64,000 nucleotides of DNA, taken from positions 1 to 64,000 of IMG/VR virus record IMGVR_UViG_3300028610_002065, one strand, 5' to 3'. The notes beneath the pieces are model-generated. The model was not told the origin of the DNA and searched no databases. It was given only the letters and a program-made list of their open reading frames with translations. Below, one piece after another: positions 22,830-64,000 of this stretch; the first letter of the stretch is position 1; each line of letters begins with the position of its first letter. The position numbers and the translations under genes are program-made. Origin of the DNA: a virus. Lineage: Duplodnaviria; Caudoviricetes.

Positions 22830-23089
22830 TTATTTTTTCCCCCTAATACTAATTCCTTCGGGTCAAATAGAATTAGTTCTGTCGGCATACCACCCGAAGG
22901 TTCATCTTTTTCATCTTTTAGATTTTCCTCTGTTTTTCTTAAATGTGAAAGTGGACTAAGCGGATCACCCTTAGTTATACCCAATTTTCTTTTTTTTCTT
23001 TTAATAGAATGATCACGAAGAGTATCATTATAGAAATAGTCCATAGTAGAGGAAGTAGATGTTGAAGTTTCCCAACTAAAAGAACTCAT
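22826..23089 (-). CDS. Hypothetical protein
   Basis: ATGA overlaps with both neighbours. Confidence 0.45.
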   Translation of the reverse strand: MSSFSWETSTSTSSTMDYFYNDTLRDHSIKRKKRKLGITKGDPLSPLSHLRKTEENLKDEKDEPSGGMPTELILFDPKELVLGGKNK

Positions 23090-26085
23090 TTGTGATTAAC
23101 CCCTATAACAGTTAGATAAGAGTTTAACAATTTTACTGATTCAGGTACCGTATTTAAATCTTTTGAATCTTCAATTAAATTTGATTCAATGAAGTTTCGT
23201 ATATAGCTATTCTTTAAATCAATACAATCGGATTTGGTTGTCAAAAATTCAAATAGATTATGTGGAGCATCATGCCCAATTAGACATGCTGTTTCCATTT
23301 CGCCACATCTTTGACCGCCTTTGTTCTTCCGACCTCCGAGGGGTTGTAGAGTTCGTCTTGCATATGCTCCGATACCTCTGGCTGCTAATTTCTCTTCAGC
23401 AATATGAACCATTCTAAAGAAATAGATATATCCGACTGCAATTTCATTTTCTAATTTAACTTGAGATAAAGGATCAAAAAGCTCTGTTGTAAATGTTGCA
23501 CCTGTGTAATCCATTGCTTTTTGTAGATCCTCTAATTTACAAGACTCGAACGGAGATTGAATAATTGTAAAGTCTTCTATAAACTCTTTGGTTATAATTT
23601 TTGGTAATGACTTTTCTAATTGGTCATAATACCATCCACCATCTGTCTTGTCAATAATTTTTATGAAATTTAAAAAGTATTTTTTAACTTCATCCTGATT
23701 GACTACCAGTTTTAGCATGTTGGTTTTCAATGCTTGAAGCGCAAATGCTAGATGCATTTCGTAGAGTTGACCAAAGTTCATTCGGGAAATGATACCTAAT
23801 GGATTTATACAAATGTCAAGATGTCTTCCATCGGGAAGCTGTGGCATTTTTTCATGAGGAACAATTCGAGAAATTACTCCTTTATTCCCATGCCTATTTG
23901 CAATCTTATCACCAACCTTAACTTTTCTAAAATGAACTCCAGCTATTTCTATTCTTACTCCATTAATTCTTTCACGTTTGCTTTTGTATTTACCGACAAA
24001 CGAAAATTTATCAAGACCTCTATCTTTGATAAACTTTGCTGCCTTATCTTTTGATAAATGCCTTTTCATCACTTTTTGTAAATCATTTTCTACATCTGAT
24101 TGTTCTTGTAATTTTTTCTCTATCCATTCTTTATATTCCGGTACCTCTTCATTCCATTCGTTTGCATATATGTTAACTTCGGATATGATGAAGGTTTTTC
24201 TAGCAATCAATTCAATTGGTTCTGAAAATACTGAATAGAACTCATCTGAATTTAACTTCTTTAAAATTGCATATGGATTGCCTGCGTTAACAACGTCCAA
24301 TACTTCTGGAAGTGGATCATATATGTCACCTTTTAATGAAAGTAGAACTTTATCCGGAGTTAATGAAAAGGATAAATCTTTGAAATGAACTGATGTTAGA
24401 CTATCATCATTTACTAATCTGTCAGATATTACAATTCCATCTTCATAATTGTTGCCATAATAGATCATAACACCAGTTAATAAATTTCGACCGATGTTGA
24501 TTTTGCCATCTTTACAGAAGTTGCTTTCAGCTAAAACATCTCCTGTTTTAAATTTGTCTCCAGGTTTTACATAGATATTCATAAAGTCAAGATGCTCAAC
24601 ATAAATTTTTCGATAACTAATATCAAAGATATCTGGTTCGCCATCTGTATATGCAACAATAATATAGTTTCGGTCTATAAAAATGACTTCGCCATCTTTC
24701 TTTGCTTGTTTAACAAATTGGGTATGTTGAGTAAACAACCCTTCACAACCTGAACTAATAAGCGGAACATCAAACTCTTTTAACATAATGGCCTGACGCA
24801 TCTGTGATGATGCCATTTGTAATCTTGTCTGATCATCATGTTTTAAAAATGGAGTCATAGATACCGGAATAGAAATGGGTTGCTTCTCTGTAATCTCATC
24901 TGTGAACTTTAAATTTTCATCCAGAAAAACATTCGGAACAAGATTTTGTAATACTCCACAATTATCTCTATCAGGTGTATCAACTGGACAAATACGACCA
25001 AACATAGTTGGAGAGATGTCTCTTAAATGTTTTGGAATATTTTCTCTTTTGAATCCACCTGGTCCTAATAGGCTAGATCTGGAAAGTTTTGTTAATTCTT
25101 CAATTGGATTAATAGAAAAATCAAACTGAACAATATCAGATACATTACACTCTGATAAAATTTGAGTTGAATTGATATTGAACTTTGGTTGTCTAGCTGT
25201 CCTATTTGAGAAGCATAAATCAAAAATGATCTTAGAGATTTTTGATACAACCATATATTCAAAACATCTTATCCTTTTATTAGTAAAAATAGTGTCGTCA
25301 ATGGTTCTAATTTTTAAAGTTTCAATCAGTTCATCTAAAATCGAATTGGTTTCCAAAAACCTTGCTGTTAAAACATCAACTTTTGGGATAAGATCGAGAG
25401 CGTATAGAATATCTTCACCTTTTGACTTTTGATTGAAACGAGAATACGTTCGTCCTATTTCAACAATGAAATCATCTTGTGTATGTCCTATTGATTCATC
25501 ATAATATGCTTTCAAATCTGCTCTTAGTGTTTCATATAGAAATCCTCTTGGATCTCTTAGATCAATCGTTTCATCAAGAAAGAAATCTTCATGAACTTTT
25601 TCTTTTCCATGGAACCCAAATAGAAGTAATGATAAGGGCACTTTTCTTCCCATAAAACTAACTTGAAGTCGAGGTATCTCTTTTTCTAAAGTCACAACTA
25701 TTGTAGCGACATTAGTTCGGAGTTTAATACTTTCACCTCTCGTTACGACAGGTATATCAAACAATTGAAATAAAGGAATCTTTTTTCTGCCGTTTATGAA
25801 TATATAATTTTCATCTATTAACTTTGGAATGTATATAGACAAGTCAATATTTGACTGCCCTTTTTGGAGTTTTATTGACAAGGTTTGTTTGAGAGTTCTT
25901 GACAATTCCCCCGATGAAAATCTCGACTCCTTTAAGTCGACTTCAAGGATTTGAAAACCAATCTCTTCGACTGGTTGTACAATTTCTCTTACCAACGGTA
26001 AAATCTTTTCATAGTCTCTTTTTCGGATTGTGAAGATATTGTTTTCTTCACTCTGAATTTTGAATGTTGGGTTTATTATTTTCAA
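23086..26085 (-). CDS. rpoB: Multisubunit RNA polymerase beta subunit, copy 1 (unsplit)
   Basis: FGRICPVDTPD, QMRQA, NYEDGIVIS, GDKIANRHGNKGVIS, NPLGIISRMNFGQ, GGQRCGEME. Confidence 0.95.
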   Translation of the reverse strand: MKIINPTFKIQSEENNIFTIRKRDYEKILPLVREIVQPVEEIGFQILEVDLKESRFSSGELSRTLKQTLSIKLQKGQSNIDLSIYIPKLIDENYIFINGRKKIPLFQLFDIPVVTRGESIKLRTNVATIVVTLEKEIPRLQVSFMGRKVPLSLLLFGFHGKEKVHEDFFLDETIDLRDPRGFLYETLRADLKAYYDESIGHTQDDFIVEIGRTYSRFNQKSKGEDILYALDLIPKVDVLTARFLETNSILDELIETLKIRTIDDTIFTNKRIRCFEYMVVSKISKIIFDLCFSNRTARQPKFNINSTQILSECNVSDIVQFDFSINPIEELTKLSRSSLLGPGGFKRENIPKHLRDISPTMFGRICPVDTPDRDNCGVLQNLVPNVFLDENLKFTDEITEKQPISIPVSMTPFLKHDDQTRLQMASSQMRQAIMLKEFDVPLISSGCEGLFTQHTQFVKQAKKDGEVIFIDRNYIIVAYTDGEPDIFDISYRKIYVEHLDFMNIYVKPGDKFKTGDVLAESNFCKDGKINIGRNLLTGVMIYYGNNYEDGIVISDRLVNDDSLTSVHFKDLSFSLTPDKVLLSLKGDIYDPLPEVLDVVNAGNPYAILKKLNSDEFYSVFSEPIELIARKTFIISEVNIYANEWNEEVPEYKEWIEKKLQEQSDVENDLQKVMKRHLSKDKAAKFIKDRGLDKFSFVGKYKSKRERINGVRIEIAGVHFRKVKVGDKIANRHGNKGVISRIVPHEKMPQLPDGRHLDICINPLGIISRMNFGQLYEMHLAFALQALKTNMLKLVVNQDEVKKYFLNFIKIIDKTDGGWYYDQLEKSLPKIITKEFIEDFTIIQSPFESCKLEDLQKAMDYTGATFTTELFDPLSQVKLENEIAVGYIYFFRMVHIAEEKLAARGIGAYARRTLQPLGGRKNKGGQRCGEMETACLIGHDAPHNLFEFLTTKSDCIDLKNSYIRNFIESNLIEDSKDLNTVPESVKLLNSYLTVIGVNHK

Positions 26086-26266
26086 TATTGGTAGCCTCCA
26101 AGTAGTGATCTCTTATAAATTCAATTAGGTCTTTATCTTCCATATAGTACAGCTTATAATGCGGTATTGCATTTTCTATTAATTGCCCCAAGCGGAGATC
26201 TGGAAATGAACCCCAAATGGTTTTTAATTCATTCAGGACTTCTGGAATTCTTTTGGGATCTCTCAT
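26048..26266 (-). CDS. Small conserved phage protein (MRDPKRI family)
   Basis: MRDPKRIPEVLNELKTIW..FPDLRLGQLI. Confidence 0.6.
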   Translation of the reverse strand: MRDPKRIPEVLNELKTIWGSFPDLRLGQLIENAIPHYKLYYMEDKDLIEFIRDHYLEATNIENNKPNIQNSE

Positions 26267-26490
26267 TCTTTTGATTTCCTTTTAAACTTATAAAAGATTG
26301 AACCCATAACTCCCTCTTCAACTATAAATGATTTAACTTCATCTATAGTTTTTGCATCTTTGGGAAACACTTCAATAATACATTCCGCCATATTTGATAA
26401 ATCCTCAGTTTTACTTTGGATCCATTCATTGTTTAAATCACCAAGGAATATATTAGTGAGAATTTTAGTTTCTAGTTCCTCAGAAGTCAT
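26263..26490 (-). CDS. Hypothetical protein between the RNAP subunit genes
   Basis: Coupled ATGA overlaps. Confidence 0.5.
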   Translation of the reverse strand: MTSEELETKILTNIFLGDLNNEWIQSKTEDLSNMAECIIEVFPKDAKTIDEVKSFIVEEGVMGSIFYKFKRKSKE

Positions 26491-29147
26491 GTTATTCTTT
26501 CTCCCTTTAAGATTTTATCCATCACTCCGGAATATTTACCTTCGTATAATATTCCTTGAAGGATTGATCTTTTTGGATTTGAAAACGCCATAGCTAGAAT
26601 CCAACTCTCTTGGTTTGGAGCAGATTGGATGCTATAATAATCTGGAGTAATTTTATCTCGGTTCTTTAACAGTCTCCACTTCCAATGGTTTTTCCACATG
26701 AGTTGAGCGACAACACATTCAAAGTGAACGTGATATATATCTTTATCATAAACATCGAACAATTCAGCAACTATATCAATGTATGTTTTTCTTTTAAATT
26801 TGTGTAGCAGTTCGGAAATAGATGCAAGATCTCCAATAATATCTTCTTGTTTCATTGAAGCATTATCTTCTTCTCCCTTTATCATTGCTGAACCAGATGT
26901 ATGAAATGTTCTTAAAACTAACTGGGTTCCTCTCTCACCAAGAGTTTGTGCTGCAATAATTCCAACGAATCTGCTATTTAACTTTTTGTATAAATCACCA
27001 TAACATCGACAACATACTTTTGGACTTTTACAAAGAATTGGACTTCGAATCATTATTTCTTTTCCAATTATATCTTTGAAGTTATCTTTAGTGATTTTGT
27101 ATAAGGTTTTCTCATCTTCAGAAAGAGCGAATTTATTTATGAGCATTCTTGCTTTTCTTTCTGAAGTAACATCAACTGGTAATAAATCAGTTGTGCCACA
27201 ATCTTCTAATCCTTCATCAATTTGAAGATTGGCACATGTAAAAATTAATTTTCGTGAAAGATATCCTGAGGTGCCTGTGTTTAGTGCTATATCAAGTAAT
27301 CCTTTTCTACAACCGTATGTTGAATAGAAAAACTCCTCTTGATTCAATCCTTCTAATAATGAATTTTTGATCGGATGTGGTAATATATGTCCATCAAAAT
27401 TAGAGATGAATCCTCTTGAAAGAACTAACTGTCGAACTTGATCCCAGCTTCCTCTAGCTCCTGATTCAATCATATAAGAATAAGAGAAATTTTTTCTCAG
27501 CATATTTGTAACTTCTGGGTTGGATAAAGATAATAATTGTTTTCTAGTTCCATCTTCAGAAAATATTTTTTCTTTGAGTTCAGTGATTCCATCTATACTG
27601 CACTCATTTAAAGATAATGTGCATCCTGATAAAGTTGCATACTTAAACCCCATCTTCTTAATATTATCTAAAATAATTGCCACATCAGAATCCTTGTAAG
27701 CATCTTTAATTTCATTAAGAATTTCCAACAATTTCTTGTTGTCGATTGTTTCATTTACATCTGGATAATCATGTGGTAAATAATTATTAAACTCTTCTCT
27801 TCCCCAATCAAATGATGTTGCATAATATATTCCTAGAATCACATCCTGACTTGGAATTGTTGTTAAACTCTCATTTGCAGGACTATTTAGATTCTTTGTA
27901 ACAAATATTTTTTCTCTTATCTCCTCTTTAGCTTCTTCAGTAATTGGTATATATACTGCCATTTGATCCCCATCAAAGTCTGCATTAAATGGTGGACATA
28001 CTAAAGGATGAATCTTTATTACTTGATCTAATGTTACTTTAATATTAAAACCAAGCATCCCTAGTCTATGTAAAGATGGTTGCCTATTTAAGATGCAAAC
28101 TTCATCCTTTGTTAGATCTTCACAGACCTTAAATAATACGGGAGATTGACTATCAATGCATTCATCAACAAAATCTATTGCTTTATTTAGGAGTTTGAAT
28201 TTTCCTATTTCTATAATTCTTTTAGCAATAGGTAATTTGAAAATCTCAAGAACCATCAGATAAGGCAGTTTACATTGATCTAATCTAAGAGTTGGGTCTG
28301 GTGTAATAACAGCTCTACCGGAAAAATCAATTCTTTTTCCTAAAATGTTTCCTCTGATTAATCCTTCTTTTTTTGCCATTTTCTCAAGGATTCGATTATA
28401 TAGTTCACTTATATCATTTTGTAATTGTTTGAAATAAGTGTAGTAAAGATTTTTATCTATCTGGATATTTATGATCGTATCTTTCATTGTCTCTTTCTTA
28501 GTGAGTATTTGAATATAATATCTATTGATTTTATCCATAAGATCTTTACCACTACCAGAACTTTTTGAAGTCGGTCTTAAGTCAGGTGGCAATACAATAA
28601 TTTGGTTGATGATAAGACTGTCAAGATTGTCTTTAACTATTTGCCATTCTTTAATTCCTTCTGTAATCATATCAGCCGCCAAAGTTTCAACTAGAACATG
28701 AATGGCTTCAATTCGTTCCCATGTGTTAACTCCAGTTGGGATGCTTTCAGAATCAAGAGTTACAACCATCTCATTGTCAATTAAATATAGAATGCTCTTA
28801 TCATTTTTCATTAAATCATCAAGAGCACTCTTTAAACTACGACCACCTAGATCTACTAAGAGATCATAAAATATTGGATTGACAACCGGAAGGGGTAATA
28901 CAATTTTTGCGAATCTTTTTCTTCGCTCATCACTGTTTACAATATCAACTTTGCAATCATCGCATGTACCTCCGGATTTTGATACTCCATGATATATACC
29001 ACATTGGCATGTGTAATTTCTGACTGGCCCAAAGATTTGCTCTGAAAATAAACCTTTTGAGTGAAACTTCTTTTTTCCGAATGTTTTTAAAGAGGTTACT
29101 TCCTCTAATGGTTCACAAAATTTATGATAATCTAAAATCTTTGGCAT
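26487..29147 (-). CDS. rpoC: Multisubunit RNA polymerase beta' subunit (unsplit, compact)
   Basis: FSEQIFGP + Zn finger, LPPDLRP, GKRIDFSGRAV, LNRQPSLH, catalytic NADFDGDQM, SGYLSRKL, GERGTQLVLRTFHTSG. Confidence 0.97.
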   Translation of the reverse strand: MPKILDYHKFCEPLEEVTSLKTFGKKKFHSKGLFSEQIFGPVRNYTCQCGIYHGVSKSGGTCDDCKVDIVNSDERRKRFAKIVLPLPVVNPIFYDLLVDLGGRSLKSALDDLMKNDKSILYLIDNEMVVTLDSESIPTGVNTWERIEAIHVLVETLAADMITEGIKEWQIVKDNLDSLIINQIIVLPPDLRPTSKSSGSGKDLMDKINRYYIQILTKKETMKDTIINIQIDKNLYYTYFKQLQNDISELYNRILEKMAKKEGLIRGNILGKRIDFSGRAVITPDPTLRLDQCKLPYLMVLEIFKLPIAKRIIEIGKFKLLNKAIDFVDECIDSQSPVLFKVCEDLTKDEVCILNRQPSLHRLGMLGFNIKVTLDQVIKIHPLVCPPFNADFDGDQMAVYIPITEEAKEEIREKIFVTKNLNSPANESLTTIPSQDVILGIYYATSFDWGREEFNNYLPHDYPDVNETIDNKKLLEILNEIKDAYKDSDVAIILDNIKKMGFKYATLSGCTLSLNECSIDGITELKEKIFSEDGTRKQLLSLSNPEVTNMLRKNFSYSYMIESGARGSWDQVRQLVLSRGFISNFDGHILPHPIKNSLLEGLNQEEFFYSTYGCRKGLLDIALNTGTSGYLSRKLIFTCANLQIDEGLEDCGTTDLLPVDVTSERKARMLINKFALSEDEKTLYKITKDNFKDIIGKEIMIRSPILCKSPKVCCRCYGDLYKKLNSRFVGIIAAQTLGERGTQLVLRTFHTSGSAMIKGEEDNASMKQEDIIGDLASISELLHKFKRKTYIDIVAELFDVYDKDIYHVHFECVVAQLMWKNHWKWRLLKNRDKITPDYYSIQSAPNQESWILAMAFSNPKRSILQGILYEGKYSGVMDKILKGERIT

Positions 29148-29578: not shown

Positions 29579-29920
29579 TTACACCTCTTGTTTTCTATAT
29601 TGAATTTCATTCCATGGGGTAAAGTAGCAATTATTCAAGTTGAATTGACTTAAAATTGTTTCGAGTAATTGTTGTGCATAATGATTGAATGGCATTTTTC
29701 TTAGTTCATTTGGAATACAGAATTTACCACTGCTTGGTTGAGCATTTGGATGTTCTCCATTGATATGAACGTTATCTAGTTTGCCATCAATTATTGTAAG
29801 TTTATACCCTTTGATAAGATATTTACGTGGATACTTTATTATTCTGTAAACATCCCCGTTGTGAATGATTTTTTGTGGACTAATAAGGTTTTTAACTTCG
29901 ACTTTTTTAAGATCCATCAT
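29579..29920 (-). CDS. Minimal E2/UBC-like protein
   Basis: HPNAQPSSGKFC matches the UBC HPN(I/V)...G.(I)C active site; follows a ThiF gene. Confidence 0.55.
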   Translation of the reverse strand: MMDLKKVEVKNLISPQKIIHNGDVYRIIKYPRKYLIKGYKLTIIDGKLDNVHINGEHPNAQPSSGKFCIPNELRKMPFNHYAQQLLETILSQFNLNNCYFTPWNEIQYRKQEV

Positions 29921-30771
29921 GCTGCTCCTGTCTCTGGAATTAACTCAATTAAAATTTTATCATACTCTTTTGTACAAGACACAACATAATTTTTAAAGTT
30001 ACATGGTATTCTTGTTACAGAATCTAAATTTGTAATTAAATCATTTGCATTTTTTAAAAACCCCATCGGTATCACTGTTTGAGACATCGGCATAGATTTA
30101 CTACCGACTATAACATTTAGATCATGCTTTTTATTTAAAGCAAGAATTGGAATAATTTTATCGGGAAGGTTAACGAATTTTTCATCTCCAGTATCATTTT
30201 CATATAAAACATCATATCGGCAGTTGTCAATCTTTTTTACATAATCTAACTCATATTTCTGTACTGACTTTAAATTAATTAATGATTTAATTGTACCGCT
30301 ATGTAAAATCATTGAAACTGTCATAGATGCATACCGTAGATCATCGCTTGTAAGAGTTTCTATATATCTACCATATAGCTGTTCTCGATAATGAACATTT
30401 TTTCTACAGTCAACAATAAGATATCTTGATGAAATATATAATCTACCATCAATATATGAGCCTCTGTTGTATGTGCTATCTCGACAATCAAGAACTAAAT
30501 CTGTATTTGGCAAATATATATGATCTTTTGTTTCGTCAAATTTTATAGGAACTGTATCAACTTGAACGTTTGTAATTATATCTTTTAATGCATCGACTTT
30601 TAATAGAGCAACGTCGATTTGCCTATATATTGAATTAGATAGATTTTTTACTTCAACTATATCGTGGTCTACAATAACTAATTTCTCTAATCCTCCTAGA
30701 TTAGAAACGGCTTCAGCAACGAAACCGCCCAATGTACCAACTCCAATTATTGTGACAGTTCGATATACCAC
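29917..30771 (-). CDS. ThiF/MoeB (E1-like) family protein, copy 2
   Basis: IIGVGTLGG, VDHDIVEVKNL, KVDAL, DCRD. GTG start at 30771 after SD AAGGAG. Confidence 0.85.
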   Translation of the reverse strand: MVYRTVTIIGVGTLGGFVAEAVSNLGGLEKLVIVDHDIVEVKNLSNSIYRQIDVALLKVDALKDIITNVQVDTVPIKFDETKDHIYLPNTDLVLDCRDSTYNRGSYIDGRLYISSRYLIVDCRKNVHYREQLYGRYIETLTSDDLRYASMTVSMILHSGTIKSLINLKSVQKYELDYVKKIDNCRYDVLYENDTGDEKFVNLPDKIIPILALNKKHDLNVIVGSKSMPMSQTVIPMGFLKNANDLITNLDSVTRIPCNFKNYVVSCTKEYDKILIELIPETGAA

Positions 30772-30797
30772 GCTTATAGTTCTCCTTTCTTTATAGT

Positions 30798-30817
30798 GGG
30801 GGAGCGTGAACTCCCCC
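30798..30817. other. GC-rich intergenic hairpin
   Basis: GGGGGAG-cgtgaa-CTCCCCC; no clear U-tract. Confidence 0.5.
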
Positions 30818-30837
30818 CCTGGCTGGCCTAGCATAAA

Positions 30838-31413
30838 TTATGCTGCTTCTGCTGACGCCTCTACTTTTACACTAGAGGCACTTCGCTCCTTCAATAAAAG
30901 AGCTTCTTCTTGTCCTGCTGGGTTTGGCCGGTATTGTGATTTGTATTTATAAGTCTGATTGGCGATCTTTATCGGATAACTTAGAGGTAGCTGAAAAGCA
31001 TATTTGGAGACACACTTTCCGTTACCATCAGATACTAAGATATCTATGGATGGATCAACCAATAAAATCTCTGGAATTTTATCCTGAAATTCTGTATCAT
31101 TATCCAGAGTTTTGCATTTAATCTCTCGCCTGACGGTTTCAAGATCTCTCCCAACTGGATTGATTTTGCCGTCATTTTCTTTTCGCATGAGAGCTTTCAT
31201 TGCCCGACCGAAGGCTTTGTTCTTTCCCGCCTTCTTACAATAGACATCTTTAACTGAGCAGATCGAAACACCTCTTGCTTCAATCCGTCTCATTTCGCTG
31301 TTGATGAATAGGCATGTGGTGAATGCATTATTCAAGATCGGAGTGCTTCTATAATAAAAAGCAACTCTATCAACGCCATTTTGATCAAATATATTCTCGA
31401 TATTTTTATCCAT
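30838..31413 (-). CDS. Conserved phage protein (G.SICS.KD...G...A.GRA motif)
   Basis: RGVSICSVKDVYCKKAGKNKAFGRA; likely start at ATG 31413. Confidence 0.6.
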   Translation of the reverse strand: MDKNIENIFDQNGVDRVAFYYRSTPILNNAFTTCLFINSEMRRIEARGVSICSVKDVYCKKAGKNKAFGRAMKALMRKENDGKINPVGRDLETVRREIKCKTLDNDTEFQDKIPEILLVDPSIDILVSDGNGKCVSKYAFQLPLSYPIKIANQTYKYKSQYRPNPAGQEEALLLKERSASSVKVEASAEAA

Positions 31414-31429
31414 CGTCAAACCCCTTTGT

Positions 31430-31460
31430 TGGTGGGGGAGCCCCAATGGAGCTCCCACCA
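31430..31460. other. Intergenic hairpin after the Ubl gene
   Basis: TGGTGGG..GAGC / GCTC..CCCACCA inverted repeat. Confidence 0.5.
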
Positions 31461-31466
31461 TAGTTT

Positions 31467-31848
31467 CTATCCCTTACGACCGGCTGGTTTCAGGAATTCG
31501 AGACGGTCACCATTTTTCAGAACATAATTGGCATCCACCTCTTTACCATTGACGAGGCCAGTGGAAAGGCGATCCACATTCAGGACCTCTCTCAGGCCCG
31601 AACGGAGCGCTGGAGTTGCTCAGTACGGAGCTACCGGTAAAGTTAATACCTTGGAGGGGACCGGCGGCCTTTGCTTTAGGGGCCACAGACGTTCCGCCAT
31701 CCTGATGTGCGATAATAGCATCAACCACAGCATCTTTCGCCAGTTTACTCAGACCGGAGATGCCGAGTTGTTGGAATGCCATTTTCTTCAGACCTTTTGC
31801 TGTCATGCTATTCAGATCTTCACGTGAGTACACTTTTCTTCGTGCCAT
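31467..31848 (-). pseudogene. Ubiquitin-like (beta-grasp) protein with N-terminal HeH/Rho-N-like domain, broken by a +1 frame discontinuity
   Basis: Frame 1 runs MARRKVYSREDL...SAPFG. The +1 frame from 31595 reads LREVLNVDRLSTGLVNGKEVDANYVLKNGDRLEFLKPAGRKG*, stop ending at 31467. Confidence 0.75.
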
Positions 31849-31862
31849 GTTACTAATTCTCC

Positions 31863-32552
31863 TTATGATGATTTTACGATTCTTGTTTGTGCATTTGCAG
31901 ACAGTTGAAGAATATCAAAATATACCTCCGACTGTTGGTCGACCTGGCCCTTTACGATCGTTTTATAAAAGACCCAGCACATGATGGTAGCTACCCCAAG
32001 ATTTGTAAAATACAGTTGGGGTTCTGCTTGAGACAATTCTTCGCATGACATTTCTTCCGGTAACTGGTCTTCGGGATTGGCAATCTCAGGATGATATGCA
32101 CAAAGATCCGGTGTTAAATCAATTCCTCCCCTCCGGACATAAACCTGCACATTACCATCTGTTAATTCGTTCCCACCAGAAATAATTGTAACATCTCTCA
32201 ATTGCATGCTGTAATTAGATATAATATTTCTGGTTTTGTGGTTGTCAACACAGATGAAGACTATGTCTCCTTCTCTGATAACCTCCGCAACATTTGTTTC
32301 ATTAATATATGCTTGAAACGAGTCAACTGGAACTTCGGGAAACTTCAACATAATTTCTGTAGCTTTCACATCCGCTTTGTTCCCGAATTGGTTAAACTCT
32401 TGCCGTTCATAGTTTTTTACTTCATAGTCGTCGCCATCTACTAAAAGGAGTTCCGCATCATAGTCTCTGCTATAATTAAGAAAGCGACATAGGCGTTCAA
32501 TGAGAATACTGCCTACTCCACCTAGTCCTATAACTGTGATATTTAACTTCAC
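31863..32552 (-). CDS. ThiF/E1-like adenylyltransferase (PRTRC-type), copy 1
   Basis: VIGLGGVGS, LVDGD.YEVKN.ERQ, CVDNHKTR, SGGNE, SCEE (candidate catalytic Cys), PQL.FTN. Confidence 0.9.
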   Translation of the reverse strand: MKLNITVIGLGGVGSILIERLCRFLNYSRDYDAELLLVDGDDYEVKNYERQEFNQFGNKADVKATEIMLKFPEVPVDSFQAYINETNVAEVIREGDIVFICVDNHKTRNIISNYSMQLRDVTIISGGNELTDGNVQVYVRRGGIDLTPDLCAYHPEIANPEDQLPEEMSCEELSQAEPQLYFTNLGVATIMCWVFYKTIVKGQVDQQSEVYFDILQLSANAQTRIVKSS

Positions 32553-44144: not shown

Positions 44145-44517
44145 ATTGTTCCATTCTTGTTACAAATTCTTTTACTTCAATCAACTTAGTTGGAGATATT
44201 GTAGTTGCTCCTTCGCCATCAACATCAATAATTTTAAAGATTAGATTATCACTTTTTAAAAGTTCACGAATAAAAAGAAGTTCATATCCGTATGGCCCAA
44301 GCATAATTTCTTTACCATCTTTAAGAAGATTAATATCTTTTTTTATTTCATCTATCAATTTGTTTATCTCATCTGAAGATGGTTCTTCGTCATGAATATA
44401 ATCTTTATACTGTTCGGTTTTGATGATTTTATTTTTTTCGATTTTATAATTTGATGGAATAAAAACTATAAAAGAAGCAGATGAACTGTTTGTTACAAAG
44501 TCTGTTTTGATTTTCAT
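44113..44517 (-). CDS. MKIKxDFVTNSS family protein 6
   Basis: MKIKTDFVTNSSSASF. Confidence 0.75.
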   Translation of the reverse strand: MKIKTDFVTNSSSASFIVFIPSNYKIEKNKIIKTEQYKDYIHDEEPSSDEINKLIDEIKKDINLLKDGKEIMLGPYGYELLFIRELLKSDNLIFKIIDVDGEGATTISPTKLIEVKEFVTRMEQYENQNRLCNQ

Positions 44518-52507: not shown

Positions 52508-53752
52508 TTAATCAATCCATACAACGGGTCCTGTTTTATTCAAAGACTTAGCTGAAGATCCTGGTCCTAAAATCCAGATGATCTTCTTTGGTAATGCTCG
52601 TCTTGGAATTGCATTAATATCTTCAGTATACCCGTCTGTGAAAGCAAGGCAAACATCACATCCCAATTCTCTTGCTCTTTCAAGACCTGGTCTGAGAGTT
52701 GTTCCTCCTCTTCCTTTAATATTGAATTGGATATCTCTTATTTTCTTGACTTGATACTCTTTCTCCACAACAGCATCACATTCAAGAACAGTTGTATAAC
52801 AATAGCGGTCTTTTTCAATAATGTTCTTCACTCCAGAAAGACCTTCTAATATTGCTGCATTAGACATACTACCTGAAGTGTCAATCAAGACTGCAATATC
52901 AAAAGTTCTATCTCTCATCTTTCCTGGAAATGGAGAGATTTTGGGAATAACTTTCCCTCCAAGTTTGAAGACATAGACTCGCTTTCGGTTGATTCTTGTT
53001 GGACTTCTTTTATATTTACTGTATCGAGTTCCTTTAATCCACTTTTGGATAATTTGATAATACGGAGCTTTTGGTGGAGAAAGCGCTCCTTGGATCAAGT
53101 CAGCAATATGAGATGGTAGAGTTCCTCTTTCTCTGTTGAAAGTTTTAACGGACTCTCTAATAATATCCTGAATGTGATGATCCAATTTTCTAGCTAAGGA
53201 ACTTAAATCAGAAACTCCTTTCATATTTGACCAACCTTCATGCCCTCCAATCATTGGCACCTCTACGTTTACAACCTTATTCCGTAGTAACCAATAGAAG
53301 TATTTTTCTGTCAATTCATTGTCAGGCATACCCCAGTTTCCGGGGAGTTGTGGAGGCCACGGTTTTCCGTCGATAATTACTGGTTCTAATAACTTCATTT
53401 GCTGATTAGCTGCGCAATCAGAAGCAACATTCCAGACTTTAATCTTCAATGCTTTTCTACTTCTTTCAGTTTCATTCGATAGTATTCTTATAAGTCTGGG
53501 TATGTGCTTATTCAATAGATGCATTCCTTCATGCTCGATAACTTTTGTGAGATTTTCATCATCAGTGCCGTTCATCAAGGTTGGTTCATAAGCGAGAGTT
53601 AATGTACCATCATTCTCTGCCATAACTCCCATTATTGAACCGAACCCTGTCATTGGTCGACGTCTGATTCTTGAAAACAAATAACCCCAATAGTTATACT
53701 TGAGCACGAATTTAGCAACCAGGTGTCTTAATCTTTCTCCCTGGTTTTTCAT
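52508..53752 (-). CDS. DUF2201-type HExxH metallopeptidase + vWA protein
   Basis: EHEGMHLL, WNVASDCAAN, IDTSGSM, GRGGT, FTDG. Confidence 0.88.
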   Translation of the reverse strand: MKNQGERLRHLVAKFVLKYNYWGYLFSRIRRRPMTGFGSIMGVMAENDGTLTLAYEPTLMNGTDDENLTKVIEHEGMHLLNKHIPRLIRILSNETERSRKALKIKVWNVASDCAANQQMKLLEPVIIDGKPWPPQLPGNWGMPDNELTEKYFYWLLRNKVVNVEVPMIGGHEGWSNMKGVSDLSSLARKLDHHIQDIIRESVKTFNRERGTLPSHIADLIQGALSPPKAPYYQIIQKWIKGTRYSKYKRSPTRINRKRVYVFKLGGKVIPKISPFPGKMRDRTFDIAVLIDTSGSMSNAAILEGLSGVKNIIEKDRYCYTTVLECDAVVEKEYQVKKIRDIQFNIKGRGGTTLRPGLERARELGCDVCLAFTDGYTEDINAIPRRALPKKIIWILGPGSSAKSLNKTGPVVWID

Positions 53753-55029
53753 TTAACTTTTCCCTCTCCGGCAGCGACAATGGGATCATAGAACTTCTTC
53801 TTATATGTGCGATCCTTATCCATCATTGCTAAATGAAGAGTTGTCATATACTTGAACTGGGGACTGAGTCTATCAAACCCATCAATCTGCGAGATAAATA
53901 ATGCCGCTGTATCAATTGGCATCATGAGCAAAAAGTCAAGACAATTCTGTAGTTTCCATGAATCTTTTTCAAATGGAGGCATAGATGTGCCCAGATATGT
54001 ACAGAAACCAACCATAAGTTCGCTGAGCTTTGAAGCGTCATTTTCTTTGACTAATTTCACAATCTTGTCCTTTACAGATTCGAAACTGTGAAACACATCC
54101 ATTGGACGGATATGCTTTTTATCTCTGGCGAACTCAAGGAAGATTTTGGTCATATTGACATTGAGAAGACCGGAACCCTTGAGTTCAATTTCATCAAAGT
54201 CAATACTTCCACGAGCTATTTCCATCTTCCATAAATGATCAGATAGTTTTTCATAGCTAGCTGGGTTGGCATATACTGCGCCGATTTTTTGGGATTCAAA
54301 GTCGTACAGATACTCAGGAAATGTTTGGATGAACTCAATAATGAGGGGATGGAAATCTTGCTTTATAGCATATGTGAGAAAATCGTGTGCATTGACTTCC
54401 ACATAGAGATGTAATTGCCTTCGAAGACCTGCTGCATCTTCTAGGTTGTCCATCGAATACTCTGAGTCATCCGGATTGTCAATTGAAAATACAAACCACC
54501 CTTTTGGGAAAGGGAGCGTGTGAACTGTATATTCATTCTGAATCTGCCACAGCAGTTGTTGGAGTTGATGGTCGCCACGTGAAAATTCATCAATCACGAA
54601 GATTCCATATGTTCCTTTGACCTTTGGAACAAAGTCAGAATAAAGCATTCTGAAATCACTAAACCCATGTTTATCTTCAACTGGGAAGGGAATAATGAAG
54701 TCATCCCTTGAAAGAACCGGAGATTTAATCATCATTAATTCAAACTCTTTCTGATTCTTTCCTTTGTTCTTTTCATTATAAGCGGCAAAAATCTCCTCTG
54801 TCAATTCTTTGGCAATCTGAAAACAGATTTGAGTTTTTCCTACGCCGGCTGGCCCAATGATATGGTAACATTGTTTGTCAACGTCTCTGCCTTTATTCCA
54901 GGCAATAATGGTATCTTTTATATCGTTTTTAAGTATCTCTTTAATCCCACCGATAGAAGTAACTGCAATATTCAGTCGCTCCTGGTACTTTAATTCCGCC
55001 TCTTGTTTCGCTGTATCATCATCTGGCAT
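53749..55029 (-). CDS. MoxR-like AAA+ ATPase
   Basis: GPAGVGKT, IDEFSR, DNP, LRRQ; adjacent vWA partner. Confidence 0.85.
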   Translation of the reverse strand: MPDDDTAKQEAELKYQERLNIAVTSIGGIKEILKNDIKDTIIAWNKGRDVDKQCYHIIGPAGVGKTQICFQIAKELTEEIFAAYNEKNKGKNQKEFELMMIKSPVLSRDDFIIPFPVEDKHGFSDFRMLYSDFVPKVKGTYGIFVIDEFSRGDHQLQQLLWQIQNEYTVHTLPFPKGWFVFSIDNPDDSEYSMDNLEDAAGLRRQLHLYVEVNAHDFLTYAIKQDFHPLIIEFIQTFPEYLYDFESQKIGAVYANPASYEKLSDHLWKMEIARGSIDFDEIELKGSGLLNVNMTKIFLEFARDKKHIRPMDVFHSFESVKDKIVKLVKENDASKLSELMVGFCTYLGTSMPPFEKDSWKLQNCLDFLLMMPIDTAALFISQIDGFDRLSPQFKYMTTLHLAMMDKDRTYKKKFYDPIVAAGEGKVK

Positions 55030-56940: not shown

Positions 56941-57903
56941 TCAAAGCACAAGGGAGAGATAGACAGGAGTTTCATCTTCTTGTATCATATCTCCCCCACC
57001 ACCTGAATCTGTTCGGAGAAGATTAGTTTTTAAAGACCCAGTTTGTCCCAACTCTTGTGAACTAATTTGAATGTCTTTCAATAAAGGAAGAATCTCAGTT
57101 TGAATATGGTCTGAAAATTCGCTTAATATTTTTTCGACTTCATCAGGATCAGCTTCCTTTGGGAATTTTGGCAGGACCAGCGCTGATGGACGAATTTTTC
57201 CTAACATTTTTAAACGAATCATCTCTGCTCCATAGCATCCACGAATCAGATATTTCCAATATGCTTCCCAATGTTGAGGAGATGGCATAATTTCAACACC
57301 AACCGGAACTCCAGCAAACATGATTATAGCACCAATCTGATTTTCGACTGGTTCGAAAGCTGCTGCAAAGTTTTCAAGAGATTTCTTGATTGATGGTTCA
57401 TCATAAAAGTCTCTGATGTGAGCTCGACTGGTACTTCCTGGGACAATACCCCTTAACCAGATGCTGATTCTATCCCATATTTTATCGTATTTTCTTCTCG
57501 ATCTGATGGTTGGATCAAGCAATGCCTTTCTCAATTCAATTGGCAGAATATCTTCATCATTATCACTTTCACGAAGAAGACCACCTTGACTTGATTCAAC
57601 ACAGCAGGCATTATCAAACTGGGACTGACTGCGGCTGGCAACAACACCAGAACCTGACATTGCATGATCTTGTGCACTTTTTCCACGAACCATATAGTTG
57701 GCCGGAACAATAGCTGGACGGGATTGATCCTTATTTTCAAATACCATTGTTCCATAACCTGCAGTTCGGGAGAAAGTTAAGTTTTCAGGATCAGCGATAT
57801 CTCCTCTCGAAGGACCAACAATTGGAACAACTGTCATTTCATCCTCTGATTGAATTGGACCAACCCCAAGATTTGAAAATCCTAACGTTTCAAAAATCGA
57901 CAT
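56941..57903 (-). CDS. ARPP-1/DUF6569-like protein
   Basis: AQDHAM, CVESSQGG, FEPVENQIGAII..AGVPVGVEI.PS..W. Confidence 0.6.
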   Translation of the reverse strand: MSIFETLGFSNLGVGPIQSEDEMTVVPIVGPSRGDIADPENLTFSRTAGYGTMVFENKDQSRPAIVPANYMVRGKSAQDHAMSGSGVVASRSQSQFDNACCVESSQGGLLRESDNDEDILPIELRKALLDPTIRSRRKYDKIWDRISIWLRGIVPGSTSRAHIRDFYDEPSIKKSLENFAAAFEPVENQIGAIIMFAGVPVGVEIMPSPQHWEAYWKYLIRGCYGAEMIRLKMLGKIRPSALVLPKFPKEADPDEVEKILSEFSDHIQTEILPLLKDIQISSQELGQTGSLKTNLLRTDSGGGGDMIQEDETPVYLSLVL

Positions 57904-59489: not shown

Positions 59490-59680
59490 CTCCTATCTCC
59501 TTTTTAACGTGGGATAATCATATTCAATTTTTTGGATGAAAAATAAATAGAACTTGCCTTCATAAATTGGCGCTCGGGGGAGTAAAACGTAGCGTCAAGA
59601 AACCCGAAAGTATCTGAATCTACGTTTAGTCCCCCTCGCATAAAATGGTGCCCTTAAAAAGAGTGAAAGATGTAAGGGTT

Positions 59681-60441: not shown

Positions 60442-60455
60442 ATTAATATATATAG
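60442..60455 (-). promoter_or_regulatory. Candidate early promoter CTATATATATTAAT
   Basis: AT-only intergenic head of the long - strand unit; CTATATATA also occurs at 19951-19959. Confidence 0.3.
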
Positions 60456-60475: not shown

Positions 60476-60736
60476 TCATGTTGCATCAACTAAAACTGGA
60501 TTACGTTCGTTGTTGAGATCGAAGATTAGCTTCTTACCAGGGAAGCTATCTGCTGTGTTCTTGATAATTTGCTTGGTCGCACTTGGTAAAAAGTTGTTGT
60601 AATAATATAACTGGAGCCCACCCTTAAAATTGAATGCTACTCCGTCGGCTGTTTCTGAAACTTCAACCAATTCCTCTCTTGGAACTGTTATTTTAAAATT
60701 ACCCTTCTTAATTGTTATTTGAGTTTTTTCAGACAT
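60476..60736 (-). CDS. Hypothetical protein
   Basis: SD AAGGAG. Confidence 0.6.
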   Translation of the reverse strand: MSEKTQITIKKGNFKITVPREELVEVSETADGVAFNFKGGLQLYYYNNFLPSATKQIIKNTADSFPGKKLIFDLNNERNPVLVDAT

Positions 60737-61355
60737 TCAGTTCTCCTTCTCTTAATGCTAGTAAAATTGTTGTATTCAATCTTTTAGATTGTTCACAAAA
60801 CCACTCTATCATATCGTCTTTATTATATGTTCTTAAAAAATCAGCAATTAACTTAGGATATGATCTAGTATCTGACTGCTCTTCTATCTCTGAAATTATT
60901 TTATTTCCATTTTGTTCACAATAATTTTCGAAACGCAGTGAGTTTATTTCTGGTTTTAGATACTTCCAAACATTAGTTATGAACTCTTCGTTGTCATATT
61001 CCAAAAATTTGATCAGTTCTATTACATCTGAAGTGTCTTCTACATCTTCAATTTTTACAATTTGGGGAAATATAAAATCATATCTTTCTTTAATGTAACG
61101 TATAATTTCAAAACATAATTCTTTTAGATCTCTAAATTCATATTCTTTTCTTAATAGCGGAATGGTTGCATTGAAACTTTCTTGAAACTCTCCCGTTCGG
61201 ATACTATCAAGAATGGTTAGGAAATAATAACTCTTCAATGCAGCTTCTTCATATGGATAACCTGTTTGACTTTCAACTCTCAAGTCATCCATATCTTCTT
61301 CTGGCATATTTAATGAGTTTCCTAACAATGCTTGTAATGCTCTATCTTCGTACAT
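60729..61355 (-). CDS. Hypothetical acidic protein
   Basis: In operon after the RNAP beta-2 region. Confidence 0.6.
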   Translation of the reverse strand: MYEDRALQALLGNSLNMPEEDMDDLRVESQTGYPYEEAALKSYYFLTILDSIRTGEFQESFNATIPLLRKEYEFRDLKELCFEIIRYIKERYDFIFPQIVKIEDVEDTSDVIELIKFLEYDNEEFITNVWKYLKPEINSLRFENYCEQNGNKIISEIEEQSDTRSYPKLIADFLRTYNKDDMIEWFCEQSKRLNTTILLALREGELNV

Positions 61356-62050
61356 TATTTTTTGGCCCTCCGACTTGCAGTAAATTCTTTTTCCATTCTT
61401 CCGACTGCTCTTCCGACTGCTCTTTTCTGCTGTCTCTTGCGAAATCCTTCAAGGTTCTTTTCAGCTCGTTTAATCTTCTTTTTTGTAGGTCTGATTCTTT
61501 CATATTCTTTTGAGCCTTTTCTATATTTTGATAATTTCTCAATAGATCTTTTTCCATAAAGACCTTTGGTTATATTAGATAATTCTTTTTCCCTTCGGAG
61601 AACTTCATCTGAAGCGTGGCTTACTCCTTTTACTTTTCTTGATAGAGCTCGTTGTCTTATTCCCACTCCTTTTTTCTTACTTATTGTAAATTCATCAGCT
61701 TCATGCCTTTTTGTAATTGCTCCCAGTGTCTTTTCTTTAGGTTTTAAATGTTTCTTTTTAACAGCATGTATTGTTTTAGTACTTACATCTGTATGTGCCT
61801 GCATGGGATCTTTGATGTATTTGCTTGGCGGAAACCAAACCTGTTTAGAATATTTACCACTTGTTTTTCCACCAGCTTTCCTTATCTTTTGAGCAGTTCC
61901 TTTTTCAACTCCCTTTGTCCATTGACTTTGAGTTTTATGGAGCCGACCTTTCTTTATTCTTTTTAAATCACTTGCCTTTAATTTACCAGCAGCGAGCATC
62001 CTCTTCCATTTGGACTCATATAAGTAATCTAAATAATCATCAAGTAACAT
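61355..62050 (-). CDS. Very basic putative internal head protein
   Basis: Acidic leader MLLDDYLDYLYE followed by a Lys/Arg-rich body. Confidence 0.5.
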   Translation of the reverse strand: MLLDDYLDYLYESKWKRMLAAGKLKASDLKRIKKGRLHKTQSQWTKGVEKGTAQKIRKAGGKTSGKYSKQVWFPPSKYIKDPMQAHTDVSTKTIHAVKKKHLKPKEKTLGAITKRHEADEFTISKKKGVGIRQRALSRKVKGVSHASDEVLRREKELSNITKGLYGKRSIEKLSKYRKGSKEYERIRPTKKKIKRAEKNLEGFRKRQQKRAVGRAVGRMEKEFTASRRAKK

Positions 62051-62054
62051 TTTA

Positions 62055-64000
62055 TTATCTCTCCAACATTAATGAAACAAAATATGAATTTAATAAATCT
62101 CGACCTGGAGATACCTTTGGTTCTTTGTATTCAGCTTCTCCTTTTTGAATAATCTCTGCTAAAATTTCTTCTCTTGTTATATAATCATCTGATAATGGTC
62201 CCATAAACTCTGCTAATACATGAGGTGCATTATAAGAGATGAATGAATAGGTATCGAGTTCTCCTAATCTTTGACCACCCTCACGCCTTTTGCCAGAAGT
62301 AGGTTGTCCTGTTTTTCCAGTTACAGGTCCAGTACTTCTGCCATAAATTTTTTCTGCTCCAAGATGTTCAAGTTTTGAAATATACATGTAACCACAAGGA
62401 ACTTCTCTTAATGTTTTTGTATTGTATTCAGGCAACGTTAATCTATATCCTGATTTTAACCCCAATGATTTCAAAGCATTTTCGATATGTTTGTTATTTG
62501 GTGCTTGAAATGGTGGAATGATTATTGGATAAAATCCAGTTTTCTTAACTTGCTCAACTAACTTTTTAAATTGTATAGGTGGTAATCTATTCAGACCCGC
62601 TACTAATATGCCTGTATTTCGTCTGTTCGGTGAAGTATCAAGTTGAGAATATATCCTTTTGATTAAATCAATTATCTTCGTTTTAGTGGTCATTGTAACA
62701 ATCAGTCTACCCATTTCTTTTGAAATTAATCCTGTATATAACTCATACATTTGACTAATGTTCATTCTGTTTAGAACACCAATTGGATTTAATACTACTT
62801 CAATGATATCTCCATTTGGCATTCTCGGCATCATATTATCTGGTTCTACCAATGATATAATTCCTTTGTTTCCATAACGACCAGCAAGTTTATCACCAAC
62901 ACCAACTCTTAACTCCTGTTCAACTTTAAATTTAATTAAAACTCCTTTTATTGTTTCACCTTTAAAAGAGAACTTTTCTCTTGGAATTTTTCCGTGTCTT
63001 TTAGCTGTTCTATCAGCATGATCTTTTATTTTTGGAAATTTACTTGGTGCAACATTTGAGTAAACTTGAATATCAACTATTTTTCCACCTGGACTTTTCT
63101 TTACAAATTGACCGGCAAATAAATCAGTTGATTCATCCTCTTCGAAACCAATGATTTCTTCTACATCTCCCATTGTTTTTCTAAGCAGAGGTTGTCCTTT
63201 TTCAATGTACTGACCTATTTCTCCTATGAACATAATTCTATCATTTTCTGATACTAAAACTTCTTCTTCAATACCATGTAGAGATGTTAATTTATCTTGA
63301 TCAGACACACTTTGACTAATAACAATTCCATCTTCAAAATTATATCCTTTGTATGGCATCATTGCGACTAATAATGGACGACCCAATGAGATGGTACCAT
63401 CAGACATACAAGCACCTTCAGCAATAACTTTTCCTTTTTTAACTACATCTCCCGCTTTAACAATAGGAGTAAAAACACTAAGAGTATTTTTTCCAGATCC
63501 TGATTTTAAATGTGCTGGTGTAATATCAATTGCTTGACTTTTATTTCCACACTTTACATATATTGCATGTTCAGTTATTCTGGTAATCTTTCCATCACAC
63601 GGAGATTTCTTAACAAAACTATTTGATAACACTCCAGTTAATATTGATTCATAACCTGATTGAACTGGAGGACTTTGAGGATTCTTTAGTGGTAATGATT
63701 GTTTAGCTTGATTAGTTGCCATAATAACTCTAGCACCATCTGTGTTTTCAATGAATGGAATCATTGCAGATGTAGTTGATAACATTCCACTACCTTCATT
63801 GTTACTTATAACTTTTTCAGCAAATAATCCTCTTGAAGATGATACCATTGCATCGACTGTTAGTTGTTGAATCAGTCCAATGTTTTCACTCTCTGGTGTG
63901 TCAAGAGGATCTATATTACCAAAGTATGTTGGATGTAAATTTCTTGCTGCTTGAGAGATTGCTCTTTTATCAGGAATACCTCCAACCTTCTTTCCAACTG
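62055..64000 (-). CDS. rpoB: RNA polymerase beta subunit, copy 2 (5' partial)
   Basis: Frame is open to the window edge (RNLHPTYFGNIDPLDTPESENIGL upstream of the listed Met); NFEDGIVIS, GDKLAGRYGNKG, GGQRLGELD. Confidence 0.95.
   Translation of the reverse strand, partial: VGKKVGGIPDKRAISQAARNLHPTYFGNIDPLDTPESENIGLIQQLTVDAMVSSSRGLFAEKVISNNEGSGMLSTTSAMIPFIENTDGARVIMATNQAKQSLPLKNPQSPPVQSGYESILTGVLSNSFVKKSPCDGKITRITEHAIYVKCGNKSQAIDITPAHLKSGSGKNTLSVFTPIVKAGDVVKKGKVIAEGACMSDGTISLGRPLLVAMMPYKGYNFEDGIVISQSVSDQDKLTSLHGIEEEVLVSENDRIMFIGEIGQYIEKGQPLLRKTMGDVEEIIGFEEDESTDLFAGQFVKKSPGGKIVDIQVYSNVAPSKFPKIKDHADRTAKRHGKIPREKFSFKGETIKGVLIKFKVEQELRVGVGDKLAGRYGNKGIISLVEPDNMMPRMPNGDIIEVVLNPIGVLNRMNISQMYELYTGLISKEMGRLIVTMTTKTKIIDLIKRIYSQLDTSPNRRNTGILVAGLNRLPPIQFKKLVEQVKKTGFYPIIIPPFQAPNNKHIENALKSLGLKSGYRLTLPEYNTKTLREVPCGYMYISKLEHLGAEKIYGRSTGPVTGKTGQPTSGKRREGGQRLGELDTYSFISYNAPHVLAEFMGPLSDDYITREEILAEIIQKGEAEYKEPKVSPGRDLLNSYFVSLMLER

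Follow-up and report, generated by a model that had tools for sequence, protein, structure and literature searches.

Why would a single phage carry two RNA polymerase (RNAP) beta genes that differ strongly from one another, and how would they relate to the virion and non-virion polymerases of phiKZ and AR9, whose beta and beta' subunits are split into several proteins? The question is raised by a stretch of 64,000 nt from an uncultured jumbo phage (IMG/VR record IMGVR_UViG_3300028610_002065, positions 1 to 64,000; hereafter the window), in which an original prediction, made from the sequence alone, recognised one beta' gene and two beta genes; all three lie on the minus strand. We refer to the complete pair as set 1 (beta'-1 and beta-1), and to the second beta gene and its partner as set 2 (beta'-2 and beta-2). 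The explanation that we consider best, and in which taken whole we place moderate confidence, is that this is a jumbo phage of the published clade of multisubunit-RNAP-encoding Caudovirales (mReC) with two unsplit RNAPs, set 2 being of the virion type and set 1 of the non-virion type.

Two pairs of unsplit RNA polymerase genes

The phage encodes two complete, paralogous RNAP cores of bacterial type, catalytically intact as judged by their motifs, each arranged as a beta' to beta operon of whole subunits (coordinates in Table 1). In set 1, beta'-1 is one polypeptide which keeps NADFDGD at aa 388 and can be aligned with bacterial beta' chains of solved structure, beginning at the zinc finger and ending at the start of the trigger loop (RTFHTSG, aa 754). 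Just 132 residues lie beyond this point, and a hidden Markov model (HMM) of the bacterial beta' C-terminal module gave no significant match in the six frames of the window. The start codon of beta-1 is TTG, in register with the N-termini of its relatives. Both betas retain GxNxED, GDKxxxRxGNKG, NPxGxxxRMN and GGQRxGE, with RYGNKG in beta-2 instead of RHGNKG. The two differing peptide strings quoted in the original prediction were located at aa 355 of beta-1 and aa 19 of the beta-2 fragment, in line with its statement that both betas have complete catalytic-side motifs; it was equally right that beta' comes ahead of beta-1, upstream on the minus strand and in the reverse of the bacterial rpoBC order.

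The remainder of set 2 is known from 35 IMG/VR loci with beta-2 orthologs (38-68% identity; L001-L035). In most of these relatives beta-2 is whole, at 1355-1393 aa, and in nearly all of the loci a beta'-2 of about 1000 aa lies immediately upstream of the roughly 1360-aa beta-2, which is the second beta' that the original prediction suggested looking for outside the window. NADFDGD is present in nearly all of their beta'-2 open reading frames (ORFs), the exceptions being pieces of genes interrupted by inserts. Beta'-2 has no zinc finger, while the N-terminus of beta-2 is extended by about 350 aa. Orthologs of beta-1 were found in at least 80 IMG/VR contigs (58-89% identity), and the catalytic motifs are kept over dozens of orthologs of both sets at 46-89% identity. 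Whole-record search of a complete relative, G003 (277,131 bp, CheckV 100%, with terminal repeats), found exactly two genes each for beta and beta', which form two beta' to beta pairs about 33 kb apart, and three more large contigs (248-269 kb) carry the same two pairs.

An unusual copy number of this kind could in principle come from a chimeric contig, a captured host rpoB or an inactive relic, and the phmmer scores of beta-1 are indeed similar for bacterial RpoB (251-259 bits) and for beta-2 (232-290 bits). We nevertheless regard an artefact or host DNA as highly improbable. Both sets occur together in at least 12 independent contigs as well as in the complete G003 genome, and because the arrangement recurs in this way it is real and the source contig is not chimeric. 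Beta-2 is whole in relatives and, as stated above, the motifs of both sets are conserved. Finally, neither beta is a host rpoB. In a beta tree of 61 sequences and 699 columns, including 32 bacteria from many phyla, set 1 (100%), set 2 (100%) and the bacteria (99%) each form one clade by the Shimodaira-Hasegawa-like approximate likelihood ratio test (SH-aLRT), and beta-2 stands apart from bacterial rpoB; in the beta' tree the bacteria again form a single clade (99%) and each set has 100% support. The cellular sequences of both trees are all bacterial. A pattern scan of species genomes returned ordinary rpoB alone, at 28-39% identity in the best segments, and a scan with single proteins found no close relative in species genomes.

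Compared with bacterial rpoBC, the phage genes share the domain set, the catalytic motifs and 28-34% identity in the conserved core. They differ in the reversed gene order of both sets, in their position outside the bacterial clade, in the lack of a detectable C-terminal module in beta'-1, in the missing zinc finger of beta'-2 and in the N-terminal extension of beta-2. There is no close relative among GenBank phages, the best phage-borne matches being about 26% identical. Cobetia phage Carin-5 and Yersinia phage YerA41 resemble the window in their beta' to beta order and whole beta (in Carin-5 the beta' is whole too), but have one set only, at about 26% identity, in genomes of about 150 kb; they lie on the other side of the beta tree, with a group of phages having fused beta-beta' polymerases, and Carin-5 has an annotated sigma-like gene upstream. 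The fused polymerases, found in at least 45 viral contigs (L036-L080) as a single ORF of about 2000-2150 aa and up to 3249 aa, group with YerA41 and Carin-5, away from the sets of the window. Salmonella phage Arash and Vibrio phage D69 have yet another layout, a 1525-1545-aa fusion of beta with the N-terminal portion of beta' (beta'N) plus a separate ORF resembling the C-terminal part.

Phages with unsplit beta and beta' are already known, and the source phage belongs to the clade in which they were described. The mReC genomes were defined by beta and beta' of at least 800 aa each, NADxDGD in beta' and a polymerase apart from cellular homologs; here the lengths are 999 and 886 aa, the motif is NADFDGD, and both trees place the polymerase apart from bacteria. 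The mReC Supplementary Datasets name 3300001782 WOR52_10000459 (277,131 bp), which is G003, along with 3300014204 Ga0172381_10000022 and 3300002242 KVWGV2_10145934 (Weinheimer & Aylward 2020, PMC7481178), so that the contigs of L023 (G003), L004 and L026 are all among those listed. Their table marks contigs having two sets with the suffixes "_a" and "_b", for example SMTZ23_10000109 (1362/1005 and 1007/904 aa), and the subunit lengths agree with ours (1365/1002 and 1007/904 aa). Its authors reported whole beta and beta', NADxDGD and a polymerase outside cellular clades, and left the phiKZ-type enzymes out of their trees on account of long branches (PMC7481178). Two sets are thus visible in that table; a keyword search of the main text turned up no passage on genomes having two polymerases. 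Relative to the literature searched, what is new is the link to the virion enzyme, the matching and polymorphic split of beta'-2, the promoter-like motif and the gene core shared with AR9.

Affinity of the two sets to the phiKZ/AR9 polymerases

Shared genes mark the clade as kin of the AR9/phiKZ group. A BLASTP comparison of AR9 with G003 and the window gave homologs for about 35 of its ORFs, among them those for the portal (gp128, E 7e-40), tail sheath, large terminase, primase, SbcC and ribonucleotide reductase; family-B DNA polymerase (PolB) and a superfamily 2 (SF2) helicase are also held in common. Iyer et al. (2021, PMC7824862) reported that helicases of the latter kind accompany the polymerase subunits of phiKZ-group phages. 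The "T4-like tail" of the original prediction proved too specific, because baseplate-region ORFs, portal, sheath and terminase have AR9/phiKZ homologs; one such ORF (6576-7691) matches, beyond AR9 gp052, conserved ORFs of phiR1-37, Staphylococcus phage DC4 and phiKZ (25245-26546). A comparison of all phiKZ ORFs of at least 100 aa with G003 and the window, made by BLASTP only, gave no match for the chimallin and PhuZ regions. As in phiKZ and AR9, two paralogous beta/beta' enzymes occur in one phage (one and a half sets in the window, the rest from orthologous loci). The difference lies in their build, namely four to five pieces of beta and beta' encoded by scattered genes there, as against single polypeptides from adjacent beta'/beta operons in the clade, where the window and most relatives have undivided subunits.

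Profile comparisons suggest which enzyme corresponds to which. HMMs built from 22-31 clade orthologs for each of the four subunits were searched against the six-frame ORFs of phiKZ, AR9, DC4 and phiR1-37, with AR9 identities confirmed from its annotation. The virion beta'N proteins (phiKZ gp180, AR9 gp145 and their counterparts) scored 107-157 bits with set 2 and 14-26 bits with set 1, and the virion large beta (phiKZ gp178, AR9 gp189) 74-176 bits with set 2 and 0-87 bits with set 1. The N-terminal subunit of the AR9 non-virion beta (gp105), on the other hand, matched set 1 at 62 bits and set 2 not at all. The preference is reciprocal in PHROG models, which were built independently and whose assignments were verified with phiKZ, AR9 and phiR1-37 proteins: beta'-2 scores 140-161 bits with the virion beta'N family (phrog_2986; phiKZ gp180, AR9 gp145) versus 72-89 bits with the non-virion family (phrog_2987; phiKZ gp55, AR9 gp270), and beta'-1 scores 117 bits with phrog_2987 versus 80 bits with phrog_2986. 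Beta-2 also matches the virion-type beta PHROGs 3148, 14872 and 3233.

In the beta'N tree, set 2 and the four virion sequences fall together (99% SH-aLRT), and an insertion after the clamp helices is common to both in the underlying alignment. Over the N-terminal region of beta, profile scores are 133.7 for set 2 with virion, 46.4 for set 1 with virion and 29 for virion with non-virion. The C-terminal end of beta' tells a similar story: a jackhmmer search started from AR9 gp125, the small virion polymerase subunit (phrog_2926), retrieves the last 170-195 aa of beta'-2 and no beta'-1, and the phiR1-37 homolog of gp125 matches the set-2 HMM directly (62 bits). Moreover, beta'-2 is itself divided in two genes in 7 of the 35 loci (about 780 aa plus 220-238 aa), the cut lying at profile position 778/779; the halves abut directly in two of the seven and have an extra ORF between them in the rest. 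In the phiKZ type, the middle virion piece ends at about 767-771 and the gp125-type piece spans about 779-1003 in the same profile positions, which bracket 778/779, so that the clade and phiKZ-type boundaries coincide. On this basis, the single beta' of set 2 would cover three phiKZ/AR9 proteins (the N-terminal, middle and small C-terminal ones) and its beta would cover the large piece plus a small C-terminal piece.

Other breaks were seen in the same genes: beta-2 is split in L016 (profile position 463) and in L027/L028 (863/868), and L008 has a 356-aa ORF inserted immediately after the NADFDGD of beta'-2, a break that recurs in L034. PolB is a second gene that is whole in G003 (a 1087-aa ORF at 195437-198700; loci L371/L372) but split in AR9, where both halves (gp132, gp152) match the single G003 ORF by BLASTP.

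There are several points that weigh against this assignment. The trees come from quick searches with SH-aLRT support only, and they conflict. The beta tree joins set 1 and set 2 at 98% (just 64% in the beta' tree), while a tree of the beta catalytic core joins the phiKZ-like virion and non-virion enzymes at 93% in place of virion and set 2. Long-branch attraction may lie behind these conflicts. For beta'N, approximately unbiased (AU) tests reject neither a single clade of virion and non-virion enzymes (p 0.115) nor one of sets 1 and 2 (p 0.061). The loss of the zinc finger, common to set 2 and the virion group, is a weak and homoplastic character because the non-virion beta' of AR9 and DC4 lost it too. 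Non-virion beta'N and the non-virion beta C-terminal subunit gave mixed preferences between the two sets, and the N-terminal beta profiles are ambiguous towards the non-virion enzyme (68.4 for set 1, 70.4 for set 2). Between the first 350 aa of beta-2 and the N-terminal extension of virion beta, hhalign detected no significant likeness (score 16). A fifth non-virion subunit (AR9 gp226, phiKZ gp68) was sought with jackhmmer from gp226, which retrieved homologs in DC4 and phiR1-37 only; as even phiKZ gp68 escaped it, the search is not sensitive enough to establish absence. The ORF at 6576-7691 was tried as a gp226/gp68-like sigma substitute and dropped, having no PHROG match and being a gp052 homolog instead. 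Finally, the beta'-2 of the source phage itself lies beyond the window and is represented by its orthologs.

These conflicts would be expected had sets 1 and 2 arisen by duplication within mReC and the two phiKZ-like enzymes by a separate duplication, the likeness of set 2 to the virion enzyme then being due to convergence, shared retention or uneven rates. The 98% and 93% nodes and both AU tests suit such a history, and a 2025 phylogenomic paper regards it as plausible that large phages acquired their multisubunit polymerases convergently (Weinheimer et al. 2025, PMC11835377). It is harder to reconcile with virion beta'N scoring, in four phages, 5-8 times as many bits with set 2 as with set 1, with the reciprocal PHROG preferences, or with the shared insertion, gp125-like C-terminal module and matching split boundary. 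Nor does it sit easily with the N-terminal beta regions, since those of the virion and non-virion enzymes are barely alike (29), yet each matches the clade's sets. We therefore consider independent duplications doubtful, although deserving of serious attention.

With these points taken together, set 2 is probably an unfragmented ortholog of the phiKZ/AR9 virion polymerase, as the original prediction had guessed and as homology to the phiKZ/AR9 virion subunits, a moderate support, now backs. Set 1 corresponds, less securely, to the non-virion polymerase. We lean slightly towards a virion/non-virion duplication older than the divergence of this clade from phiKZ/AR9, the clade having kept both enzymes in their original two-gene form. 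The suggestion that the window represents a pre-split condition gains plausibility from the unsplit bacterial outgroup, though its polarity is unproven.

A promoter-like motif and the question of packaging

A conserved promoter-like motif, CTATATATATTAAT, resembles the early promoters of AR9. The window's own gaps include too few true intergenic ones for motif discovery, and the motif surfaced only via the complete relative. In G003, the 13-mer CTATATATATTAA has 12 exact copies on the minus strand and one on the plus strand versus 0.02 expected per strand (13 in total versus 0.05 expected). These copies are intergenic, typically 40-55 nt upstream of a ribosome-binding site, and head minus-strand blocks with replication genes and both polymerase sets; the motif is essentially missing from the plus-strand blocks that carry the sheath, baseplate and portal genes. 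Across the 35 loci there are 33 copies, all on the gene strand and many about 0.9 kb downstream of beta-2. The clade motif and the AR9 early-promoter consensus, AAATATATATTAT (PMC5312081), have the core ATATATATTA in common. An AT-rich element with this core and undetected alpha, omega and sigma70 are thus further likenesses to phiKZ/AR9 (PMC7598289, PMC5312081). In G003 and three near-complete relatives, Pfam models found no alpha N-terminal domain and no sigma70 region 2 or 4 (the window was not scanned in six frames); as the Pfam sigma models also miss the annotated sigma factor of Carin-5, a divergent factor may still be present.

By analogy with phiKZ-like phages, one enzyme, probably that of set 2, would be packaged and would start transcription at CTATATATATTAAT elements, and the other would then transcribe the structural genes, so that the programme could run independently of host polymerase, alpha and sigma70. 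In every two-polymerase phage studied, the promoters of the virion polymerase are marked by an AT-rich motif of this kind that stands out in bioinformatic analysis (PMC7598289).

The genomic placing of set 2 weighs against packaging. In AR9 the virion polymerase genes are late and AT-rich promoters early (PMC5312081). In at least three relatives (L001, L014 and L023), by contrast, a CTATATATATTAAT element lies 2-4 kb upstream of the set-2 operon, and set 2 is therefore a poor fit to a late, packaged enzyme. Both sets lie within strand blocks of replication genes and not among structural genes. One way to read this is that set 2 is homologous to the virion enzyme but unpackaged here, packaging being a later phiKZ-like innovation; host polymerase or some other factor would then start the infection, with synthesis of both phage enzymes following entry. 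The position of set 2 amid DNA-metabolism genes, with no structural neighbours, speaks for this reading, as does the status of the basic gene next to beta-2, which the original prediction had called internal-protein-like and taken as a hint of a virion enzyme. The gene is indeed very basic (Table 1), but it is an unconserved insert with no counterpart in the 35 related loci and no PHROG or Pfam match, and we rejected it as evidence for a virion enzyme. On the other hand, the complete relatives yielded no sigma70 or alpha homolog to redirect the host polymerase, and the AT-rich motif is, as noted above, a hallmark of virion-polymerase promoters. We thus judge an unpackaged set 2 unlikely. The independent duplications discussed above would also accommodate both sets being in motif-driven replication blocks, as the enzymes may in that case share a programme (e.g., middle and late) with neither of them packaged. 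A packaged set 2 remains our preferred reading.

Two other non-coding features were noted. The intergenic gaps at 59490-59653 and 16753-16836 each hold a GC-rich hairpin and then, ahead of the next gene, an AT-rich stretch, which looks like a terminator with a restart after it. In G003, the 11-mer ACAACTACAAC and shifted versions of it occur up to 31 times, which suggests a repetitive coding or tandem element.

Neighbouring genes and the meaning of an unsplit virion-type polymerase

The immediate neighbours of the polymerase genes are partly conserved. Directly after beta-2 in most of the 35 loci (30 by phmmer, 31 by jackhmmer), and starting within a few nucleotides of its stop codon in relatives, there is a gene for an acidic protein of about 200 aa, separated from beta-2 in the window by the basic ORF. 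Its AlphaFold2 model is all-helical (predicted local distance difference test score, pLDDT, 87). It belongs to no PHROG or Pfam family, jackhmmer finds no homolog in phiKZ-like phages, and Foldseek returned no PDB match with an E value of 0.001 or less; Z scores in a wide structural alignment were at most 7.3, which is the noise level for helical bundles, and was set aside. Relatives also conserve a 153-167-aa ORF situated directly upstream of beta'-2, and we infer that the two proteins are candidate accessory subunits of set 2. Further downstream, a run of unknown genes includes one for an ARPP-1 domain protein, and is followed by genes for a zinc-ribbon protein, an AAA ATPase and an HNH-type protein, the last two with AR9 homologs.

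In set 1, two small ORFs between beta'-1 and beta-1 have no homologs in four relatives and no significant Pfam match. They were considered as missing C-terminal pieces of beta' or omega-like subunits, and rejected because they are not conserved and because beta'-1 and beta-1 overlap by 4 nt in one relative; over 58 loci, the gap between the two genes ranges from -17 to 1013 nt. Directly downstream of beta-1, and kept in relatives, is a gene for a FolE2-type GTP cyclohydrolase I, which may point to DNA modification of the 7-deazaguanine type. Directly upstream of beta'-1, a ubiquitin-like conjugation module, found at the same position in four relatives, also contains a conserved 113-aa ORF.

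Table 1. Positions in the window of the polymerase genes, their neighbours and the other features discussed (pI, isoelectric point; K+R, lysine plus arginine).
Feature	Position	Strand	Length	Characteristics
AR9 gp052 homolog	6576-7691	plus	371 aa	End of baseplate operon; BLASTP E 1.5e-9
Gap with hairpin	16753-16836	minus		GC-rich hairpin, AT-rich stretch
FolE2-type GTP cyclohydrolase I	21939-22829	minus		Pfam E 9e-63
beta-1 (set 1)	23086-26085	minus	999 aa	Pfam Rpb2 domains 3/6/7
Small ORF	26048-26266	minus	72 aa	Not conserved
Small ORF	26263-26490	minus	75 aa	Not conserved
beta'-1 (set 1)	26487-29147	minus	886 aa	Pfam Rpb1 domains 1-5
Ubiquitin-like conjugation module	29579-36942	minus		Parts in the next three rows
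ThiF/E1	29917-30834	minus		
JAB and several zinc ribbons	32553-34334	minus		
Prok-E2_D (large)	34312-36942	minus		
SF2 (ResIII/SNF2-like) helicase	44514-45920	minus		Pfam ResIII/DEAD; AR9 gp156 homolog, BLASTP E 5e-17
HNH-type protein	52508-53752			
AAA ATPase	53749-55029			
ARPP-1 domain protein	56941-57903	minus		Pfam E 3e-22
Gap with hairpin	59490-59653	minus		GC-rich hairpin, AT-rich stretch
Promoter-like motif	60443-60455	minus		Exact copy of CTATATATATTAA, the only one in the window; context TTTCTATATATATTAATTATTG
Acidic all-helical protein	60729-61355	minus	about 200 aa	pI 4.4; conserved set-2 neighbour
Very basic ORF	61355-62050	minus	231 aa	pI 10.6; 30% K+R; between beta-2 and acidic protein gene
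beta-2 (set 2)	62055-63998	minus	647 aa (C-terminal part)	Pfam Rpb2 domains 3/6/7; runs off the window edge (64000)

The wider importance of these genes lies in the origin of the jumbo-phage polymerases. Whether the virion and non-virion enzymes go back to a duplication or to two acquisitions is still called unknown in a 2026 review (PMC13282480), and reviews back to 2020 likewise treat the origin of the two enzymes as unknown. As of 2020, no virion polymerase had been purified (PMC7598289), and we found no mention of one in the later reviews searched. A widespread lineage that has both enzymes as whole beta'/beta pairs, one of them specifically allied to the virion enzyme, and many other genes in common with AR9 could serve as an outgroup that breaks the long branches in such phylogenies, and it would offer both a concrete series of fissions and a two-gene version of an enzyme that is hard to study as five fragments.

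If the duplication is indeed older than that divergence, with both enzymes kept by the clade in two-gene form, the five pieces of the phiKZ-like virion polymerase are the outcome of stepwise gene fissions, and the fission of beta' at 778/779 is still polymorphic in the clade. The clade would then supply a virion polymerase that is unsplit by nature and has its own CTATATATATTAAT promoter, usable for biochemistry and structure; with the promoter-like motif at hand, testing in vitro is straightforward. Overall, the link to the virion enzyme, the matching fission, the motif and the shared AR9 gene core together make the origin of the phiKZ-type enzyme testable.

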